Source of the DNA: Candidatus Omnitrophota bacterium
GTDB lineage: Bacteria > Omnitrophota > Gorgyraeia > 2-01-FULL-45-10
Direction of reading: 5' to 3'
DNA length: 64,000 bases
Assembly (NCBI GenBank): GCA_028699255.1
Contig: JAQVUX010000006.1
Coordinates: 25,928-89,927 of the forward strand
Of this stretch, positions 2,634-64,000 are shown one piece after another; within the stretch, counting starts at the first letter, position 1; every line of letters starts with the position of its first letter. The notes under the pieces were generated by a model. It saw nothing but the letters and a program-made list of their open reading frames with translations, was not told the DNA's origin and did no database searches. The position numbers and the translations under genes were made by a program.

Positions 2634-2960
2634 AAGTATCACACTGTTATTTTTTAGCATTGGTTTAGTCGTAATGACCTATAAATAAAAAGTGACTGAA
2701 TTAACTAGTATTTAGCACTAGGCAATCCAGCCATCTAATAAATAAAATATTACTAGACCTGCGATTTTGCGCCCCTATGTCACCATAGGTTTGCCTTTAT
2801 CTAGAATATTGTATATTAAGTATAGCATAGAATATAGTTAAGTCAATAGAAAGTAACAACCTTTTTGAATTACTAACCTTGATGAGTGGTGGTTATTTTC
2901 TCAGTGTCCATCCAGTGACTATAGCACGTCAAAATACGTCCTATTCCGTCATAATTCATA

Positions 2961-3056: not shown

Positions 3057-5675
3057 TTACTTTTTCCGTTTTATCGACTTCTTCTTCGCTTCGCTCTTGG
3101 GTGGCGCAACCTTTTCTTTGGGCGCAGTTTTCTTTTCTTCAGTCGGAGTCGTCTCGGGTTTCGCCTCTTCGAGCTTTTCTTTCACGGGAACAGGCGCGGC
3201 TGTAACCGTAGCCGCGTTTACAACTGCCGCGGCCGGAGCGGTTTCGCTTTCGTCTTCGGGAACTATCTTAGCGACCGACGCGACTTTATCCGCCGCATCC
3301 AGACGCATAAGCCTCACGCCCTGCGTCGAGCGCCCGGTAGTGCGTATATCTTTTATCGGACAACGAACGATCATGCCTTTTTCCGTCATAAGCATTATCT
3401 CGTCCTTGTCGGAAACTGTCGTAAGGCTCACGGCCTCGCCGTTCTTGCCTGTCACCTTCATATTTATAATACCTTTACCGCCCCGGGATTGCAAACGATA
3501 TTCTTTGAAGGGTGTCCGCTTCCCGAAACCCTGTCCGCTGACAGTAAGTACCGTCTGCTCGGGCTTGACTATTTCCATGGCGATACATGCGTCTTTTTTG
3601 CCGAGCGTTATACCTTTGACGCCTTTGGCGGCCCGGCCCATATCGCGAACCTGCGCTTCTTTGAACCGTATGGCTTTGCCCTCTTTGGTAGCGAGCAATA
3701 TCTCGTCGTCGCCGTTCGTCATCTCGACTTCGATAAGTGCGTCGTCTTTCTCGAGGCCGATACCTATAATGCCGCCCTTCCTCGGGTTGGAATATGCGGT
3801 AAGTGCCGTCTTCTTGATGAGCCCGTTCTTCGTGGCCATGATAAGGAAGTGCCCGTCTTTAAACTCTCTCACCGGCACAAACGCGCTTATATTCTCCCCC
3901 TGGGCTAACGCGAGCATGTTAACTATAGCTTTGCCTTTGGACGTCCTGCCGCCCTCGGGTATCTCGTGGACTTTCAGCCAGTGAATGTTACCTTTGTCCG
4001 TAAAGAACAGCATATAGTCGTGGGTCGATGCTATAAAGAGGTGCTCGACAAAATCTTCCTCTTTCATATCGGCGCCTGTAACGCCCTTGCCGCCCCGATG
4101 CTGTTTTTTGTAACTGGACACGGGCAGTCTCTTGATGTATCCCGAATGGCTTATCGTTATGACGACATCCTCTTCGGCGATCAGGTCTTCGATATCGAGC
4201 TCTTCAGCTTCGGGCGCTATCTCCGTCCTTCTCTCGTCGCCGATTTTTTCGGCCAATTCTTTCGTCTCTTCTTTTATTATCTCGAGAACCTTCCGCTCGC
4301 TGGCAAGAATAGATTTTAAAAACTCTATTCTTTTTATGAGCTCGAGATATTCTTTCTCTATCTTGTCACGCTCGAGGCCGGTCAGGCGCTGTAACTGCAT
4401 CTCGAGTATCGCGGTCGCCTGTTTTTCCGACAGATCGAACTTCTTTATAAGCTCTATCTTCGCCGCCTGCGGGCTCTCGGACTCTTTTATGACCTTTATG
4501 ATCCTGTCGAGATTTTTCAGCGCTATCTTTAATCCCTCGAGGATGTGCGCCCTGTCCTGGGCCTTGGCCAGCTCGAATTTCGTCCTTCTTACTATTATGA
4601 CCTTGCGGTGTTTTATGAATTCATCGAGGATCTCTTTTAAGTTTAAAACCTTGGGCCTGCCGCCGACGAGCGCCAGCATAATAACGCCGAAGGTCTCCTG
4701 CATCTGCGTATGTTTGTACAGTTGATTTAACACGACGTGCGCGTTGATGCCGCGCTTCAGTTCTATGACTATGCGCATCCCGTCCTTATCCGACTCGTCC
4801 CGTAGATCGGAAATGCCCTCTATCTTTTTATCCTGTATCAGATCCGCTATCGATTTGATGAGATTCGCTTTATTAACGAGGTACGGTATCTCTTTGACGA
4901 TGATGGCTTCTTTGCCGTTTTTCTGCTCTTCAATAAACGCCTTCGCGTTTATTTTAAGCCGCCCGCGTCCGGTCGTATAAGCGCTTTTTATACCGTCGTA
5001 GCCGCGGATTATCCCTCCCGTCGGGAAATCGGGCCCCTTCACCTTCTTTAAAAGATCTTTCGGTTCGCAATCGGGGTTGTCTATCACAAAGATGATCGCA
5101 TCGGCTATTTCTCTCAAATTATGCGGGGGGATGTTCGTCGCCATGCCGACGGCTATGCCGCTCGACCCGTTGACTAAAAGATTCGGCAGGCACGCCGGAA
5201 GAAGCGCCGGCTCCTGGAGCGACCCGTCGAAGTTAGGGACAAAATCCACCGTATCTTTTTCTATGTCGAGTAGCATCCAATCCGTTATGCGCTCGAGCCT
5301 GGCTTCCGTGTACCTCATGGCGGCCGCTGAATCTCCGTCGATCGAACCGAAATTTCCCTGGCCGTCGACTAAAGGATAACGCAGTGAGAAATCCTGCGCC
5401 ATGCGCACAAGAGTATCGTAAACCGCGCTGTCTCCATGCGGGTGATATTTACCTAATACCTCTCCTGTGATCCTCGCGCATTTTTTATACGGCTTATTGT
5501 GCTCGAGTGAAAGCTCTTTCATCGCGTAAAGGATCCTGCGGTGGACGGGCTTCAACCCGTCGCGCACATCGGGCAGGGCGCGGCCTACGATGACCGACAT
5601 CGCGTAATTAATATAGGAATCCTTCATCTCTTCTTCTATGTATCGCGTGATTACTTTTTCATTCCGTGTGTACAT
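3057..5675 (-). CDS. gyrA: DNA gyrase subunit A
   Basis: 872 aa; N-terminus [30 protein letters not shown]; GyrA beta-pinwheel repeats present; lysine-rich C-terminal tail. Confidence 0.95.
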
Positions 5676-5695
5676 TATTCTCTCCTAAGAATTAT

Positions 5696-8466
<2,771 letters not shown>

Positions 8467-26172: not shown

Positions 26173-26416
26173 CACCCCGGGAAGCGCGATTTGCCTTTCG
26201 ACAAAAGGCATGATATACTTTTATTGAAATAAAATATCCCTGCGGTGCGCGTGATTGGAACAGGAATCTTGAGCCAACAGTATGTTAAAAGGGAGTTTAA
26301 CTGAGTGAGCGCCTTGGCGTTCATTCGAGAGCTCCCACCTGATGAAAATCGGGGTCAAGATTACTTTCTCCACACGGCACAGGCGGGGATTTTTTTAATT
26401 TTGCACCCCTGAAGAA

Positions 26417-54685: not shown

Positions 54686-57343
54686 TTACTTCTTATTTTT
54701 TTTGAGAAATTGAAAAATCATGTTAAGCCGCAACGGCTCATGCCTGAGCGAAAGGAACCCTACGGCAAGGACGGCGTACAAAATGAATATCCCCGCCGAC
54801 ACGCCTGCGACAGGTAAAACGCCGCCCATCTCTTCAATCCCCGGCGCTAAAAAGCGCGTAAATACAGTTATGAGAACACTTGTTATAATGTAAGGCGCGG
54901 CATGCCACATGAAACTTTTTTTCATATCCCCCGATAGATACACGAACGATACAAGTAAGGATATCACATAAGCGCCGGATGAAAAAGCGAGAACACCGAG
55001 CGGCACCTTTAAGGCAAACATCGCTATAAGAGCCAGGTATGTCAGCCCAGCCGTCGCGTTAGCCCAAAGGTTTACAGACGGTTTTTTTAAAGTGAACAAC
55101 ACAAAGGAGGGGACGATATTGCACGTCCTGAATAAATAACCGACGGTGAGCCCCTTTAACACCCATGTCGCTTTTTCCGCGAAAGCATTGCCCATCCATA
55201 TACGTAAGACCGGCCCTCCCATAATGAATATCCAGGTTGCCGCGAGAAAAGCCAGAAAGAGCTCCGCGTCCAGCGCTATCCTGAATATCTTCTTCCAGTC
55301 TTTTTCTTCCCGGTCGAGATCTTTTTCAACCACTCCGCTTAAATGAGGCAGGAAGACCTGGGCAATCCTTACGATGATCTGTTCTCCCTTGCCAAGTATG
55401 GCCATAGGAACACTGTATAGTGTTACGGCCGCCGCGTTCAAAAAGAAGCCGATAAAGAGCCTGTCGAATATTCCCATGGCAGTAAGCGTTACGTTAGTGA
55501 GGAGGGAAATGCCGCCGAACGAGGCTATCTCTTTAAGCTCGCGCAGGGTGCCCGCAATACGCATGTTCCATCCGGGGAATACCCTTTTTAGCATAAAGAT
55601 GCCGATAAAAGCGAAGCACCAATTCAATATGACGGAATATTCTACGGCGGGTGCCAAAGCACTGGTTATAGACACTATGACGACAACTCCTATGGTATTT
55701 AGCGCATTCCTACCCACTAAAAGAGCGCTTGAAACATCGAACCTTTGGAAACCTATCGCTATAGAGGCCATAAGATTTACTATGATGGTCGGCAGGACGC
55801 CCAGAGCCAGTAGATAAAAAGATTTTAACGAATCGGCGTAATGCCGGTCGGAGGCGTTGAAAAAATGCGATGCTAATACCGGCGCGGCCAAAAAGAGCAA
55901 AATCGAGAAAAGAGCGCCCAGCCACGCCGTAAAACGCAGGATGCTGTTTATGTGCCTGTTGAGGCCATCCAGGTCTTTTTTTGCAATGTATTTTGGAATG
56001 AAGGCGGTAGCCGTCATTTTAAGTCCAAAATCCAGCAGGTCTGCTAACCCAAGCAATATACTGCAAATCGCCCATATTCCATACAGCTCCAGGCCCAATT
56101 CTTTAACGAGAAATGGCGTTGCGAATATCAATAAAAGAGCGGGGAGTAATAATGTGAGAAGATTGTATGCGCTGTTTCTGGTGACTGTCCGCAGGGGCGG
56201 CATAAGCCGCCGGTCGGGATTCGTTATTTGATATATGCTTTTTCGCAGGATAGGGAACAGGACGTAAAAGAGTTCTTTTAACAGTATTATCGGGGAGTGG
56301 CGCAGGCTTATCGAAATACCCGAGGCGCACCCGGGGCATTTTTTGAAGAACATGCACCTCTCCGCCGCTTTATATTCGGGCGAGCGTAGTATTTCCGTTA
56401 ACGGATTTATGGTAAGATTGCCGCGTCTTCCCATTGACCAGCAACCCCCGAATACGTTTCCCCTCGAATCGATACACAACCTTTTCTGGGAGGTAACGCA
56501 GGGAAGTTTTTCTTGCCGCGGATTTGCGAAATAATTGCGCATGAAAGTGATTTCAGAGTATAAAAGATTGACGGAATCCCGATCACGGTTTTTCTGCTCG
56601 ACCAGAATGCGTTGTGCCTCGGCGACGGTAGTTTCATCCGGCCAGTAGTCGTCTCTTTCCATGGATGACCGCCCCGCTCTGAAAAAATACGGGGTCGAAT
56701 CGAGAAGATTAAGGCCGATGGGGATATTTAATTTTTCCCGGAAGGCTAAAACAGAGGGCAGATAAGCTATCGTTTTTTTTGTAAGCGTGAAGCTTATGAT
56801 GCCCCTAAGCTTTCCTTCATTTATCCTGCTTGCGATAAGCTCGCACGCTTTTTCCACTTTTTCATACGAGCCTTTTATGCCGCGGACGGATTCGAACTCT
56901 TCTCCTATACCGTCAACGGATACGGCTATGAATTTCGTACCTGACTCTATTAGCGTGTCGAGCAGAGGCTTATCGAGGAGATAGCCGTTTGTGATCAGTC
57001 CGACGCTCATACCGAAGTTTTTCGCTGTTTCTACGAGTTCCGGCAGGTCTTTCCGTAGAAGCGGTTCGCCACCCGCGAAAACCACATTCGATATGCGGTT
57101 ATCTTTAAGTTGTTTTAATACGTTTTTCCATCCGTCTGTGGTAAGCTCTCCGGCGCCGTCACTGTGCCATGCGCCGCAGGTAACGCACTGGAAATTGCAC
57201 CGGTCGGTTACGTTGACCGCCGCATAGGAATGCGCCTCTTTCAAGAGAGGATACAGGAACGGGATTCGATATGCGATATTGGCGTTTATAAGTGAAGGGA
57301 AGTATCGTGCGGATATATTAAAAATACTCTTTTTTTTATGCAT
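54686..57343 (-). CDS. Fusion protein: N-terminal radical SAM/SPASM domain plus C-terminal Wzx-like polysaccharide flippase (PST family)
   Basis: CNFQCVTC radical SAM motif; SPASM-like Cys clusters (CVTSQKRLCIDSRGNVFGGC, CMFFKKCPGC); then ~500 aa with 12 or more predicted TM helices. Single ORF of 885 aa. Confidence 0.6.
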   Translation of the reverse strand: MHKKKSIFNISARYFPSLINANIAYRIPFLYPLLKEAHSYAAVNVTDRCNFQCVTCGAWHSDGAGELTTDGWKNVLKQLKDNRISNVVFAGGEPLLRKDLPELVETAKNFGMSVGLITNGYLLDKPLLDTLIESGTKFIAVSVDGIGEEFESVRGIKGSYEKVEKACELIASRINEGKLRGIISFTLTKKTIAYLPSVLAFREKLNIPIGLNLLDSTPYFFRAGRSSMERDDYWPDETTVAEAQRILVEQKNRDRDSVNLLYSEITFMRNYFANPRQEKLPCVTSQKRLCIDSRGNVFGGCWSMGRRGNLTINPLTEILRSPEYKAAERCMFFKKCPGCASGISISLRHSPIILLKELFYVLFPILRKSIYQITNPDRRLMPPLRTVTRNSAYNLLTLLLPALLLIFATPFLVKELGLELYGIWAICSILLGLADLLDFGLKMTATAFIPKYIAKKDLDGLNRHINSILRFTAWLGALFSILLFLAAPVLASHFFNASDRHYADSLKSFYLLALGVLPTIIVNLMASIAIGFQRFDVSSALLVGRNALNTIGVVVIVSITSALAPAVEYSVILNWCFAFIGIFMLKRVFPGWNMRIAGTLRELKEIASFGGISLLTNVTLTAMGIFDRLFIGFFLNAAAVTLYSVPMAILGKGEQIIVRIAQVFLPHLSGVVEKDLDREEKDWKKIFRIALDAELFLAFLAATWIFIMGGPVLRIWMGNAFAEKATWVLKGLTVGYLFRTCNIVPSFVLFTLKKPSVNLWANATAGLTYLALIAMFALKVPLGVLAFSSGAYVISLLVSFVYLSGDMKKSFMWHAAPYIITSVLITVFTRFLAPGIEEMGGVLPVAGVSAGIFILYAVLAVGFLSLRHEPLRLNMIFQFLKKNKK

Positions 57344-59856: not shown

Positions 59857-59933
59857 GGGGACGTAGTTCAGCTGGTTAGAACGTCAGATTGTCGATCTGA
59901 AGGTCGCGGGTTCGATCCCCGTCGTCCCCGCCA
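59857..59933 (+). tRNA. tRNA-Asp (GTC)
   Basis: Acceptor GGGGACG/CGTCCCC; anticodon loop TTGTCGA; CCA encoded. Confidence 0.85.
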
Positions 59934-60035
59934 AAATTAAAAAGCTTCTGTTTAAATATCGGCTTTTTAATTTTGCTCCGAAGGTCTGGCGAAAAAATAT
60001 GCCCATTTTAACCTAAATGCAAATTCATAAAATGG

Positions 60036-60064
60036 CCAGAATTTTTCGCCGCGCTTAGACCGAG
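60036..60064 (+). repeat. Left copy of a 29-bp imperfect direct repeat, CCAGAATTTTTCGCCgcgCTTAGACCGAG
   Basis: Matches 63751-63779 at 26 of 29 positions, in the same orientation. Confidence 0.5.
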
Positions 60065-60119
60065 GAGCTACCTTTGGAGTTTTGATAATGCATAGCAGGC
60101 CGATATAGATAATCATATA

Positions 60120-60143
60120 GCAACCCAAGCGGTTGCTTTTTTT
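60120..60143 (+). terminator. Rho-independent terminator: GCAACC-caagc-GGTTGC stem-loop followed by seven T residues
   Basis: Seen directly, downstream of tRNA-Asp and upstream of the KAP gene. Confidence 0.5.
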
Positions 60144-60224
60144 ATTCTTGGAAGGCATGGCACAAAAATGGCACAGTAAACGGAACCAAGCAGAGTATGG
60201 AAAAACTTGCATGGGGAGGAAAAA

Positions 60225-63200
60225 ATGGTTGAAGAAAAATCTTCTAGCACGAGTTACTTATCAGATTCCGCTGTAAATAAATTGACAGAGGATAAGTTTA
60301 AGCATGCTGAGATTGCAAAAATAATAAAACAGATAACAATGGAATGTCCTATGCCATTTACTATTGGCCTGTTCGGAAGTTGGGGAACAGGCAAAACTAC
60401 AATTTCGAACTTTTTTAGAGATATGTTACTAAAAATTGAAAAAATCGCAGTAGTTTATTTCGATGTTTGGAAATACGAGCGAGATTGTTTAAGAAGGCAA
60501 TTTTTAATTACGTTGGTAGACAGTCTAAAAAAACAAAAAAAGTTAGGTAATAAATTCAAATTAAATAAGGCATTGTTTTTTAATATTGGTACACCGGAAA
60601 TAAAAATTAAATGGCTAACGTGGTTGATACATGTCAGCATTTATATCATACCGCTAGTATTGATTTTCATAATAAATGTGTATTGTTACAGACAAATGGC
60701 AATGACAAACTCTGCCGTTTTTATTTTTACTGTCATTTATCTTCTTGTTTTTCTAAAAATGCTTTACGAGAGCATCAAGACCATTGCCCAATCCATCTCT
60801 GTTGAAACGACCACAATCGAGCAAGATCGTTTGAGCGAGCCGGATGAATTTGAAAGTGAATTTGATAGAGTTCTTAAAGAAATGGAAAATGTAGACAGGT
60901 TAATCATCGTGATTGATAATCTTGATAGATGCGAACATAGAAAAGCCACAGAGTTATTGTCTACAGTAAAAACTTTTTTAGAGAAAGATAAATGTGTTTA
61001 TGTAGTTCAGTGTGACGAAAAAGCAATCAAGGATCATCTTAAGAAGGTGTATGAAGAAATCGACCCGGATGAGTATCTAAGGAAATTCTTTAACACCGTT
61101 ATTAATATTCCCAGTTTTATCAGAAGTGATTTGGATAATTATACAGAGAAATTATTAGGAATAACTAAGATACCCGAATTCAATGCTTCAGAAGTTGGTA
61201 CAATTATTACAACAGCATTTAGAGAAAATCCTAGAAGAATAAAACAGTTTATAAATATGCTGATTTCTTATCTCCTCTTAGCAAAAGAAAGAGAATCTGA
61301 AATATCGAAAAGCTTATTGCCCGAAGGTGTTATAACAAAAAACATTCCATTTTTAACTAAATTTTTAATATTAAGACATAACTGGCCCGATTTTTTTGAA
61401 ATCGTTAAAGATGATCCTAGCATTCTCGACGAAATTAATTTTTCTTATAGGGACCACAAAATTCAACTAATTGAAAAAATTAAAAATATACTTAACAAAG
61501 ACCGAAAGCTGGATGATTTTCTTAGAAGTACGCAATTGTATACTACAAAATATCCAAGAGCATTTTTATATTTAAAGCAATCGTCGGAAGAACTCAAAAT
61601 ACCCGAAAGCGAAGATATTAGAATAGCCCTATTAGACGGCAAACAAAGTTTCATCGAAGAAAAATTTAAGATGATAAAAGTGAACAAAGAACTGATAACT
61701 GCCTATGAGAAAATAGTTCTGGACCTTCTTGATAATAGCTCCGATCGATTAACGAGGCTTTTCCATATTTTGAATGTCTCAATTAGCGGATCCCGGAAAA
61801 TTGGTATTAATTTTAGCCAAAATCTCCATAATAAAGCAATTGATATAATTTCTAGCAAACTTGCCGACTATTTCTATCGTTTTGATCCAGAGGATATTTT
61901 TATGGTTCTCGACCAATGTTCACCGACATTGAGAAAACCAATAATAAATCGCTGTTCAAAATTATTATCGGAATCAAAATTACCGGGATCGGATGAGCTG
62001 TTTGGAACCATTGATCTAAAGAAATATCAAGAGAGTCTAATTCACCAAATCTCATTACATATGTCGTGGTTTGAGGAGGAAAAAAATGATATCCAAAAAA
62101 CAATAGCTGTTAGTTATACACATGATCTAGAAATCATTGAGCAGCTATGCCAAGATAATAATTTAATCAAATTTTTTATATCGAAAGATGCTCTTGGCAA
62201 AATAGTCGATCAGATCTCTGATGCTGAGGTACAAGAAACGAAAGAGGGCGAGAAAATTAAACTAGAGCGAAGAATAAAAATTTTGAAAAGCTGTGATAGT
62301 CTGATGAATAACAACATTAAACTCGCACTGATTACTAAACTAGACAATTTATTAAAACTAGTCAATCCTCAACCTTTAACCGAGTCAAAACGCCAGTTTT
62401 TAGCATCACTTTCTACTGTTTTAGCCAATTTTAATCTCGACGTAATTAATAACAATAAAGAAATAACTATTTTATCAAAAGATTTATTGAGCGGATATAA
62501 CGCTGCTGGCTCAGAACAAATAAGAACAGAGTACATAATTCCTTTGATTCTTATCGAAGAAAAAGTCGGGGCAGATATGAAGTCAACTATTAATAGTGTT
62601 GTAACCCCGTTTCTTACAAATACCAAGCCAAATTTAATTTCAGAAATAGTTTCCAAATTGACTAATCTAGGCGTAAAAAAGTTCATAGAAGAAAAGTATA
62701 AATCAATTTTCTTCATACGCGCATCGCAATATCCAGCAATTTTTGATTCATTGTGGACGAATTATGGCCCAGAATTGAAAGATGCATTGTTTGTAAACAT
62801 GATAGTGTCTTCGCATTATATGACTGCTATGAATAAAATCAAAAGTGCCAATTATAAGGTTGAAAAACCATCTTTGATTGCTCAAGCTATAATTGAAAAA
62901 CTCCCCTTGATTAATGCTAATGAAAAAGCCGAATTTTATACCGCTTTATCTGCTTTAAATTGTGGAGATTCGCAGGAAATACTAGAAAAATATATAGTTC
63001 AACTTAGGGGCGAATTGATATCTGGTGATATGCAACGAGAGGAAATCGGGTATCGTGCTTTAAAAGAAGGAAAAAATTCAAAAGTTCTTAATTTGGAAAC
63101 ATGCAAAACTATTGTTAACGACTTGATAAATAGTTTGGAAAAAATAGAAATCCTGACTCAAAAAAATACTTTCGCGTTTGATACAGTTATATTTTTATGG

Positions 63201-63500
63201 AATGATTTGAGCCTTACACACAGAGATAAGTTTGTTACGTTAATCGTTTATAAATTAATTGAAAAAAATGCGGAGATCGAAACAAAAAAAATAGGATTAT
63301 CCAAATTGGCAGAGTGCAAACCAGCATATAATGATCATGAGTCAAACTTTGATCACTTATTAAGCATCATAGAAAAAATTGCGGACGCAAATAACAAAAA
63401 AATAGTAGCTGATGAATTTTTGAAATCTATGCCAACAAAAGAAAAAATGGATAAAAAAGAAGAAACGTTTTGGAATAAAGTCGAGAAAATGACAAAGTGA
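60225..63500 (+). CDS. KAP-family P-loop NTPase with ~750-aa C-terminal extension
   Basis: GSWGTGKTT Walker A; two TM helices inserted before Walker B LIIVIDNLDRC (the KAP hallmark); RBS GGGGAGG 5 nt upstream of ATG at 60225; the track ORF starts at TTG 60207. Confidence 0.75.
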   Translation: MVEEKSSSTSYLSDSAVNKLTEDKFKHAEIAKIIKQITMECPMPFTIGLFGSWGTGKTTISNFFRDMLLKIEKIAVVYFDVWKYERDCLRRQFLITLVDSLKKQKKLGNKFKLNKALFFNIGTPEIKIKWLTWLIHVSIYIIPLVLIFIINVYCYRQMAMTNSAVFIFTVIYLLVFLKMLYESIKTIAQSISVETTTIEQDRLSEPDEFESEFDRVLKEMENVDRLIIVIDNLDRCEHRKATELLSTVKTFLEKDKCVYVVQCDEKAIKDHLKKVYEEIDPDEYLRKFFNTVINIPSFIRSDLDNYTEKLLGITKIPEFNASEVGTIITTAFRENPRRIKQFINMLISYLLLAKERESEISKSLLPEGVITKNIPFLTKFLILRHNWPDFFEIVKDDPSILDEINFSYRDHKIQLIEKIKNILNKDRKLDDFLRSTQLYTTKYPRAFLYLKQSSEELKIPESEDIRIALLDGKQSFIEEKFKMIKVNKELITAYEKIVLDLLDNSSDRLTRLFHILNVSISGSRKIGINFSQNLHNKAIDIISSKLADYFYRFDPEDIFMVLDQCSPTLRKPIINRCSKLLSESKLPGSDELFGTIDLKKYQESLIHQISLHMSWFEEEKNDIQKTIAVSYTHDLEIIEQLCQDNNLIKFFISKDALGKIVDQISDAEVQETKEGEKIKLERRIKILKSCDSLMNNNIKLALITKLDNLLKLVNPQPLTESKRQFLASLSTVLANFNLDVINNNKEITILSKDLLSGYNAAGSEQIRTEYIIPLILIEEKVGADMKSTINSVVTPFLTNTKPNLISEIVSKLTNLGVKKFIEEKYKSIFFIRASQYPAIFDSLWTNYGPELKDALFVNMIVSSHYMTAMNKIKSANYKVEKPSLIAQAIIEKLPLINANEKAEFYTALSALNCGDSQEILEKYIVQLRGELISGDMQREEIGYRALKEGKNSKVLNLETCKTIVNDLINSLEKIEILTQKNTFAFDTVIFLWNDLSLTHRDKFVTLIVYKLIEKNAEIETKKIGLSKLAECKPAYNDHESNFDHLLSIIEKIADANNKKIVADEFLKSMPTKEKMDKKEETFWNKVEKMTK

Positions 63501-63535: not shown

Positions 63536-63590
63536 TCAAACTTCAATTCAAACTTCAATTCCAAACTTCTAATTCAATTCCGGGGACACG
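63536..63590 (+). repeat. About 2.5 tandem copies of a 12-13 bp unit (AAACTTCAATTC)
   Basis: Immediately downstream of the KAP gene stop. Confidence 0.4.
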
Positions 63591-63750
63591 CAACTTAATT
63601 ATTAATCTCTTTATTATTGCTGTTATGATTTTTGTATGGCTTGCATAGCTCGTATTGTTGTTCCCGGCATCCCTCATCATGTTACTCAATGAATACAATG
63701 CATAATGGGGGACATCTCACACCGCACCTAATATTCCTACGTTTTCCCAG

Positions 63751-63779
63751 CCAGAATTTTTCGCCTTACTTAGACCGAG
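63751..63779 (+). repeat. Right copy of the 29-bp imperfect direct repeat, CCAGAATTTTTCGCCttaCTTAGACCGAG
   Basis: See 60036-60064. Confidence 0.5.
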
Positions 63780-63904
63780 ATGCTCTGCGATCACGGCCAC
63801 AAAAGATATTAGTGTTGCTCAGAGATATGTTCATTATGGCAAAGCCTACTTACAGAATAATATGAATAATATTGGGGAGCTGGATAGATATTCAAGTAAA
63901 AGGA

Positions 63905-63947
63905 ACGCCCCCCTTGACGATTAGCATACTTTAGAGTATACTACTTT
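63905..63947 (+). promoter_or_regulatory. Promoter TTGACG-N17-TATACT overlapped by two tandem 15-bp repeats (TACTTTAGAGTATAC x2) that contain the palindrome AGTATACT
   Basis: Seen directly, upstream of the ORF starting at 63978. Confidence 0.4.
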
Positions 63948-63977
63948 AGAGTATACTAATTGAAAGAGGTGGAAAAC

Positions 63978-64000
63978 ATGAAGTTTATCAATCGGGAAAT
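63978..64000 (+). CDS. Partial CDS (5' end only), MKFINRE...; possibly an ATPase
   Basis: RBS AGAGGTGG 6-13 nt upstream; only 7 codons visible. Confidence 0.3.

Follow-up and report, generated by a model that had tools for sequence, protein, structure and literature searches.

What does a solitary gene for a very large nucleoside triphosphatase (NTPase) of the KAP family do in the genome of an Omnitrophota bacterium? The gene lies on the plus strand at positions 60225-63500 of the window, that is, the whole 64,000-nucleotide stretch of contig JAQVUX010000006.1 (Candidatus Omnitrophota bacterium, assembly GCA_028699255.1) analyzed in this study. The encoded protein of 1091 amino acids (aa) consists of an AAA+/STAND-like KAP core with a transmembrane (TM) hairpin between the Walker A and Walker B motifs, followed by an α-solenoid of about 740 residues. 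This architecture is conserved in a rare family, whose genes occur in variable, mobile, or defense-rich neighborhoods and have no fixed partner. We give about an even chance to the reading that the KAP protein is a single-protein, membrane-anchored sensor-switch, most likely directed against phages or other invading elements. The analogy to EF_KAP, Tmn, PifA, RdrA, and STAND proteins suggests a role in defense, a sensor function of the solenoid arm, and an output that would affect the membrane or the energy state of the cell.

The NTPase core and the transmembrane hairpin

The open reading frame (ORF) is real. It starts at 60207 (TTG) or 60225 (ATG) and ends with the stop codon at 63498-63500. 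A GGAGG is located 7 nt upstream of the ATG, and the ATG form is 100% identical to the 1091-aa database protein P0001, annotated as a "P-loop NTPase fold protein" of a Candidatus Omnitrophica metagenome-assembled genome (MAG).

The Pfam profile KAP_NTPase (PF07693) matches residues 29-347 (60309-61265) over profile positions 7-287 of 293, with E = 1e-33 and 117.3 bits against a cutoff of 20. The Walker A motif GSWGTGKTT (residues 51-59; 60375-60401) and the Walker B motif LIIVIDNLDR (residues 226-235, within LIIVIDNLDRCE, residues 226-237; 60900-60935) are both intact, and the alignment of 104 homologues shows W53, G54, G56, and K57 of the former and D231, N232, and R235 of the latter to be invariant. 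A further conserved motif is NPRxIKQFxN (residues 335-344; 61227-61256), in which P336, R337, K340, and N344 are invariant.

Two strongly hydrophobic segments, residues ~130-158 (60612-60698) and ~165-190 (60717-60794), sit between the Walker motifs according to hydropathy, and each is a long helix in the AlphaFold2 model. The hairpin is kept in at least 97 of the 104 family members. Since its loop is only about six residues long, both of its ends should be on the same, cytoplasmic, side. Conservation within the hairpin is that of hydrophobicity only, and it is directly followed by a strongly conserved segment, TxETxT ... RFxDPxEFExEF (residues 192-213; 60798-60863), with invariant F209, E210, and F213. 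A channel or a selective pore was considered for the hairpin and rejected, as it has no conserved polar residues; we treat it as an anchor or a clustering element.

With the profile, the motifs, and the inserted TM helices all in place, the protein is, as judged from its sequence, a bona fide KAP family member with predicted membrane insertion. TM helices inserted in the NTPase domain are the feature that gave the founding 2004 description of KAP NTPases its title, as quoted in text citing it. The preliminary description of this DNA, made from the sequence alone, had recognized the Walker A motif, the TM pair inside the P-loop domain, and the Walker B motif, and the Pfam profile, hydropathy, AlphaFold2 model, and 104-member alignment agree with it. 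It was also right in calling a gene here, though the length has to be corrected from 1097 to 1091 aa.

The C-terminal arm

Residues ~354-1091, about 740 in all, are all-α in the AlphaFold2 model and form a confidently modeled HEAT/ARM-like α-solenoid; no catalytic fold was found. Profile searches of Pfam, NCBIfam, PADLOC, and PHROG gave no match to this arm. Neither a HEAT/ARM profile match nor recognizable sequence repeats were detected in it, and in hhalign comparisons among six arm segments every probability was below 10%.

The arm has two parts of different distribution. The proximal helical region, the first ~230 residues (354-585; 61284-61979), recurs in KAP proteins of various other lengths, a broader set that includes those of haloarchaeal plasmids, whereas the distal part (residues ~586-1091; 61980-63497) is confined to the family of ~1090-aa proteins. 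When the C-terminal 738 residues alone were compared by exhaustive phmmer search with 1.84 billion cluster representatives, no more than 142 clusters matched at E ≤ 1e-3. Wherever the matching protein is full length, the matched part follows a KAP NTPase and spans roughly residues 360-1090; the shorter matches look like gene fragments.

The arm diverges about twice as fast as the NTPase (median identity to family members 24% and 46%, respectively), yet keeps its length and colinearity. Invariant or near-invariant positions, including F432, D471, N909, C913, W992, and W1083, are distributed along the whole length in the 104 full-length members. Throughout the family the arm is roughly neutral to slightly acidic in net charge, which disfavors a DNA-binding region of the kind suggested by analogy with QatA.

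The solenoid fold, the neutral charge, and the fast divergence fit a binding or sensor scaffold. The same properties, together with the lack of a catalytic fold, do not bear out the "effector-like tail" of the preliminary description, which was correct in calling the region mostly helical and devoid of motifs. A match to a housekeeping domain, named there as evidence that would speak against defense, was looked for and not found. We consider improbable the related alternative that the KAP NTPase unleashes its C-terminal 740 residues as a toxic or enzymatic effector in abortive infection. It would agree with the conservation of the region along its whole length and with the observation that the Enterococcus protein EF_KAP loses its defense activity without the C-terminal region, the authors of that study speaking of "antiphage domains" (PMC13552941).

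Distribution of the family

A word-indexed search of 5.8 billion proteins retrieved 561 relatives of the KAP protein. The best 120 of them are nearly all 1040-1110 aa long, with 98-100% query coverage and about 30% identity, and come from Omnitrophota, Cloacimonadota, Halobacteriota, Aenigmatarchaeota, and others. Relatives are encoded in 187 of 185,579 species-representative genomes, and only about 35 of these are full length. The bacterial hosts are Gammaproteobacteria, Pirellulales, Sedimentisphaerales, Chloroflexia, Atribacteria, Omnitrophota, Cloacimonadota, Stahlbacteria, and many Patescibacteria of the candidate phyla radiation (CPR); the archaeal hosts are Halobacteriota, Pacearchaeota, and Aenigmatarchaeota. 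This patchy spread across both prokaryotic domains excludes a core gene. Conservation in all related genomes, which the preliminary description would have counted against a defense gene, is thus not what is seen: the family is rare and horizontally mobile across bacteria and archaea. P0002, which is 74% identical to the KAP protein of the window, is encoded in a different genomic context. No closely related solved structure was found by sequence, as the 104-member profile gave only weak generic P-loop matches (E ≥ 0.025) against all PDB sequences.

Genomic neighborhoods of the homologues

Neighbors within 6 kb were clustered in 32 full-length homologous loci, and the clusters were identified by Pfam. 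No constant partner gene emerged across these loci, in line with the stand-alone gene proposed earlier. The homologues adjoin restriction-modification (R-M), CRISPR-Cas, toxin-antitoxin (TA), recombinase, and prophage genes. HsdM/N6_Mtase occurs in ten of the 32 loci, HsdS in six, HsdR in four, and N6_N4_Mtase in five; about 12 of 148 nearest neighbors match R-M or MADS methylase models of PADLOC. Large serine recombinases, often adjoining the KAP gene, are present in eight loci, and tyrosine integrases in three. Among individual loci, that of P0002 contains an EcoRI-type methylase alongside GmrSD as well as an integrase together with a primase, and others contain an MmeI-type enzyme with a Cas4-like nuclease, HepT/MNT, or Cas3/Cse1 with WYL and IS110.

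Could the KAP protein then be an accessory or regulatory NTPase of neighboring systems, especially of type I R-M, in the way QatA, RdrA, and BrxC serve multi-gene systems? R-M methylases are located within a few kilobases in about one third of the homologous loci. In two of them (L041 and L056) the KAP gene follows hsdR on the same strand after a gap of 13-18 bp, and in two others (L004 and L009) the called KAP gene starts about 5 bp after an MmeI-type gene, an arrangement that looks operonic. Further, QatA is dispensable for part of Qat defense and modulates its range, and the structural neighbors of the KAP protein, RdrA and BrxC, are both subunits of multi-gene systems. However, most loci have no partner, including that of the window, where the tRNA-Asp gene and an exopolysaccharide locus lie upstream and an insertion sequence (IS) scar and an unrelated ATPase gene downstream. 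The kinds of candidate partners also vary (type I, type IIG, CRISPR, and TA), as is typical of co-location in defense islands and not of an obligate partnership. We therefore regard an accessory function as unlikely.

The mobile neighbors bear on another alternative, in which the protein is an NTP-dependent scaffold, tethered to the membrane, that builds up or takes apart a membrane complex on behalf of a mobile element or of the cell, in signaling, DNA transfer, or element maintenance. Such a role was the first to be proposed for KAP NTPases in general (compare the eukaryotic Kidins220/ARMS), and HEAT/ARM solenoids are generic protein-protein scaffolds. The frequent proximity of integrases, serine recombinases, and prophage genes would suit element maintenance as well, and several loci have no defense genes nearby. 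On the other hand, the KAP gene holds no fixed place in any class of elements, and searches of sequenced plasmids, phages, and IMG/VR contigs did not find it. A fast-evolving arm on a conserved motor, patchy spread, and R-M, CRISPR, and TA neighbors are the usual signature of immune genes, and the prokaryotic KAP proteins tested so far (PifA, QatA, EF_KAP with three others, and the RdrA of S. suis) are all linked to defense. In our estimate, a function outside defense has a small chance of being correct.

Terminase subunits occur in three of the 32 loci, all from Patescibacteria (L030, L038, and L080). There the KAP gene adjoins a large serine recombinase, a DNA methylase, and the large and small terminase subunits, and on account of these neighbors the three copies appear to lie inside CPR prophages. 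By contrast, neither IMG/VR nor the genomes of cultured phages yielded a member of the family.

Comparison with known systems

A close precedent by description is EF_KAP, a single Enterococcus gene that protects against phages and encodes TM helices, a KAP domain, and a 322-aa unknown region (PLoS Biology 2026, PMC13552941). In the same study, antiphage activity was also found in three metagenomic KAP proteins whose unknown C-terminal regions differ, defense required both the Walker B motif and the C-terminal region, and EF_KAP defense did not behave as abortive infection (PMC13552941). The protein of the window shares with this class the single-gene organization, the KAP NTPase with TM helices, the C-terminal region in which neither a known domain nor structural similarity to a characterized protein is recognized, and the location near recombinases and in variable regions. 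It differs in having a HEAT/ARM-like solenoid of about 740 aa in place of the 322-aa region, and its family is hosted by Omnitrophota, CPR, Planctomycetota, Chloroflexota, and archaea instead of Bacillota. By its architecture the KAP protein fits the description of the EF_KAP class, of which it is a candidate member.

Tmn, described in a 2026 preprint, is an NTPase of the YobI family. Its P-loop domain encloses two TM helices, and its arm is a HEAT/ARM-like solenoid whose repeats are visible only in three dimensions; the arm binds RIIB of phage T2 and sets the specificity, and the output is ATP hydrolysis with Mg2+ export leading to plasmolysis (PMC13001434). The KAP protein is likewise a single-gene candidate system with a TM pair within the P-loop domain and a long cytosolic solenoid arm with repeats seen only in three dimensions. 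In both, the arm diverges faster than the motor, the setting of specificity by the arm being an experimental result for Tmn. The NTPase families are different, and YobI/Tmn gave no match to the KAP protein in Pfam or PADLOC at E ≤ 1. The decamer, the RIIB trigger, and the Mg2+ export that ends in plasmolysis have been established by experiment for Tmn only.

PifA, the founding prokaryotic KAP NTPase, responsible for exclusion of phage T7 by the F plasmid, is also a single protein that acts at the membrane against a phage; a summary of it mentions membrane depolarization and nucleotide leakage (PMC13001434). PifA is reported to be without TM helices. Its KAP domain is similar to that of the window (PADLOC PifA, E = 3e-18 to 1e-19), but only profile positions 4-106 of 720 are matched, and there is no relation between the two C-terminal regions.

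RdrA, which belongs to the RADAR system, is soluble and is not known to have a TM hairpin. The KAP protein has no PADLOC RdrA match, no RdrB adenosine deaminase was found in any neighborhood, and the deposited RdrA chains (PDB 8fnt and 8fnu) comprise 785-796 residues versus 1091 here, with an arm of about 740. QatA, a KAP NTPase whose C-terminal domain is unknown, binds DNA, assembles into 7-8-mers, and has an accessory part in Qat. The NTPase domain of the window protein is similar to it (E = 4e-24), but the score for the NCBIfam equivalog NF041923 is 99.3 bits versus a cutoff of 600, and neither QatB, QatC (QueC-like), nor QatD (TatD) is encoded in the window or in the homologous loci. The PADLOC candidate PDC-S20 is also similar in the NTPase (E = 8e-25 to 2e-27); only its profile positions 16-320 of 464 are matched, the C-terminal third being unmatched, and the KAP protein is 2.4 times longer. 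Finally, Avs and other bacterial NLR-like STAND proteins differ in that the KAP protein matches neither NACHT nor NB-ARC (21.3 bits for NPHP3_N fall short of the Pfam cutoff of 24.8), lacks a separate N-terminal effector domain, and has its TM hairpin inside the NTPase. Identity with QatA, PifA, RdrA/RADAR, Tmn/YobI, or STAND proteins was rejected on profile scores and coverage and, for QatA and RADAR, also on the absence of partners.

A putative sensor-switch at the membrane

Under the sensor-switch reading, the hairpin would tether the NTPase core to the membrane, and the fast-evolving solenoid would serve as a recognition arm that binds a phage-derived protein. Binding could switch the NTPase through nucleotide exchange or hydrolysis and ring-type oligomerization, as happens in relatives of the Orc/Cdc6-like, RdrA, and STAND kinds. 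The output would then be produced at the membrane by clustered hairpins, by run-away NTP hydrolysis, or by both. Possible models are the membrane permeabilization reported for PifA and the ion export, ATP collapse, and plasmolysis reported for Tmn; in either case phage replication would be halted. We consider the three alternatives discussed above less likely than this sensor-switch, and the solo defense candidate of the preliminary description stands as a hypothesis in view of the neighborhoods, the distribution, and the published KAP antiphage genes, with the defense role itself assigned by analogy.

Several observations weigh against it. The family alignment has no conserved polar or charged channel-type residues in the hairpin, and, given such a hairpin, the membrane output is proposed by analogy. 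HEAT/ARM solenoids are generic scaffolds and are not of themselves marks of immune sensing. Many homologous loci have no recognizable defense gene near the KAP homologue, and in the Omnitrophota genome no classical defense system is found near the gene, the PADLOC candidate PDC-S27 aside. The phage database contains no full member of the family and one weak partial match only, sequenced plasmids have only partial relatives (residues ≤585), and IMG/VR contigs have no member at all. The host is an uncultured Omnitrophota MAG.

A more specific version, which we put forward tentatively and consider doubtful as a whole, makes the family the KAP counterpart of Tmn. It would be an independently evolved, membrane-embedded pattern-recognition NTPase, in which the solenoid directly binds a conserved phage protein and the hairpin-tethered ring brings about a membrane or energy catastrophe. 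If so, it would be among the few dedicated single-protein immune receptors common to CPR, DPANN and other archaea, and ordinary bacteria.

Single-gene KAP defense with a variable C-terminal region is already published (PMC13552941), as is the solenoid-sensor logic for Tmn (PMC13001434). New are the ~1090-aa family, its large, confidently modeled, family-specific arm absent from defense databases, and its distribution across domains. If the defense role is correct, the single-gene KAP class extends to a much larger architecture with a defined solenoid arm and reaches Omnitrophota, Patescibacteria/CPR, Planctomycetota, DPANN, and haloarchaea, lineages with poorly known immune repertoires. Together with Tmn, the family would then indicate a general design of membrane immunity, namely, an NTPase tethered by an in-fold hairpin and provided with a fast-evolving helical-repeat sensor. 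In practical terms, the gain is modest: a partner-free test case for the coupling of recognition and output in KAP proteins, and a new profile for defense-annotation tools, which now recognize only the N-terminal third of the protein.

The locus in the Omnitrophota contig

The KAP gene forms a patch of 31-33% GC inside a region of 45-50% GC. The gene for tRNA-Asp(GTC) (59857-59933, plus strand) is located directly upstream, and since the GC drop starts just after it, it is a probable insertion hotspot. A search of related genomes with a lineage-specific 24-mer did not find an "empty" tRNA-Asp site. Two structures between the tRNA gene and the KAP gene, a perfect 14-nt inverted repeat right after tRNA-Asp (59932-59975) and a terminator-like hairpin with a T-run (60119-60137) about 90 nt upstream of the KAP start, suggest that the KAP gene may be transcribed from its own promoter; a scan for promoters and terminators gave no signal above the shuffled background.

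Downstream of the gene lies a 114-bp scar of an IS200-like (Y1_Tnp) element (63576-63689, plus strand), consisting of the left end and the first 18 codons (MACIARIVVPGIPHHVTQ*) with 90% identity. The region beyond the window end was viewed in the Logan contig L001. It carries an intact IS200-like/RAYT-like Y1 transposase element at L001 ~5468-6220 (window-equivalent ~65371-66123), bounded by terminal inverted repeats of ~39 nt (ATTCCGGGGACACxCAACTTAATTATTA...). The gene next to KAP, encoding a 464-aa protein with ATPase_2 and DUF234 domains, starts at 63978 on the plus strand and runs off the window at 64000 (L001 4075-5469). Its product matches PDC-S27 over the full length (E = 4e-48), and the gene is a neighbor only, as it is not conserved alongside the KAP gene in homologous loci. 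A perfect tandem repeat of the 15-mer TACTTTAGAGTATAC (two copies, 63927-63956) just upstream of it overlaps a promoter-like site and may be a candidate operator. Beyond the intact element, DUF134 and ArsP permease genes follow with normal GC content.

An imperfect direct repeat of 30-35 nt, GCCAGAATTTTTCGCC-NNN-CTTAGACCGAG..., brackets exactly the low-GC KAP gene. Its left (60035-60069) and right (63750-63784) copies, both on the plus strand, are 3715 bp apart; two copies are present in the window, with zero expected by chance, and none was found in 88 other loci or in JGI metagenome contigs. The repeat could be att-like or mark a cassette boundary. An origin of the two copies from IS200-like transposase remnants was rejected by tblastn and blastn, which leave 63576-63689 as the only IS scar; neither copy belongs to the intact element. 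The variable patch thus comprises about 6.5 kb with the KAP gene, the IS200-like elements, and one PADLOC candidate (PDC-S27), and housekeeping genes lie beyond. The earlier "island-borne" holds weakly: there is a variable low-GC patch, but it is short and not a rich defense island.

Upstream of the tRNA gene is an exopolysaccharide export locus with Wza-like and Wzc-like proteins and a radical-SAM/flippase fusion. The fusion, an unusual protein of 885 aa (54686-57343, minus strand), joins an N-terminal radical SAM domain to a flippase-like Polysacc_synt_3 membrane domain. Two RNA elements were identified elsewhere in the window. A c-di-GMP-I riboswitch of the GGC type (2717-2804, minus strand; 62.6 bits, gathering score 59) precedes a minus-strand ORF of more than 892 aa (1-~2680), which runs off the left edge of the window in a stretch of ~37% GC and has radical-SAM-like (CPFNCAICA) and HAD-like (FFDLDGTLIDT) motifs. 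The gene for 6S RNA (SsrS) is located at 26234-26393 on the plus strand (72.3 bits).

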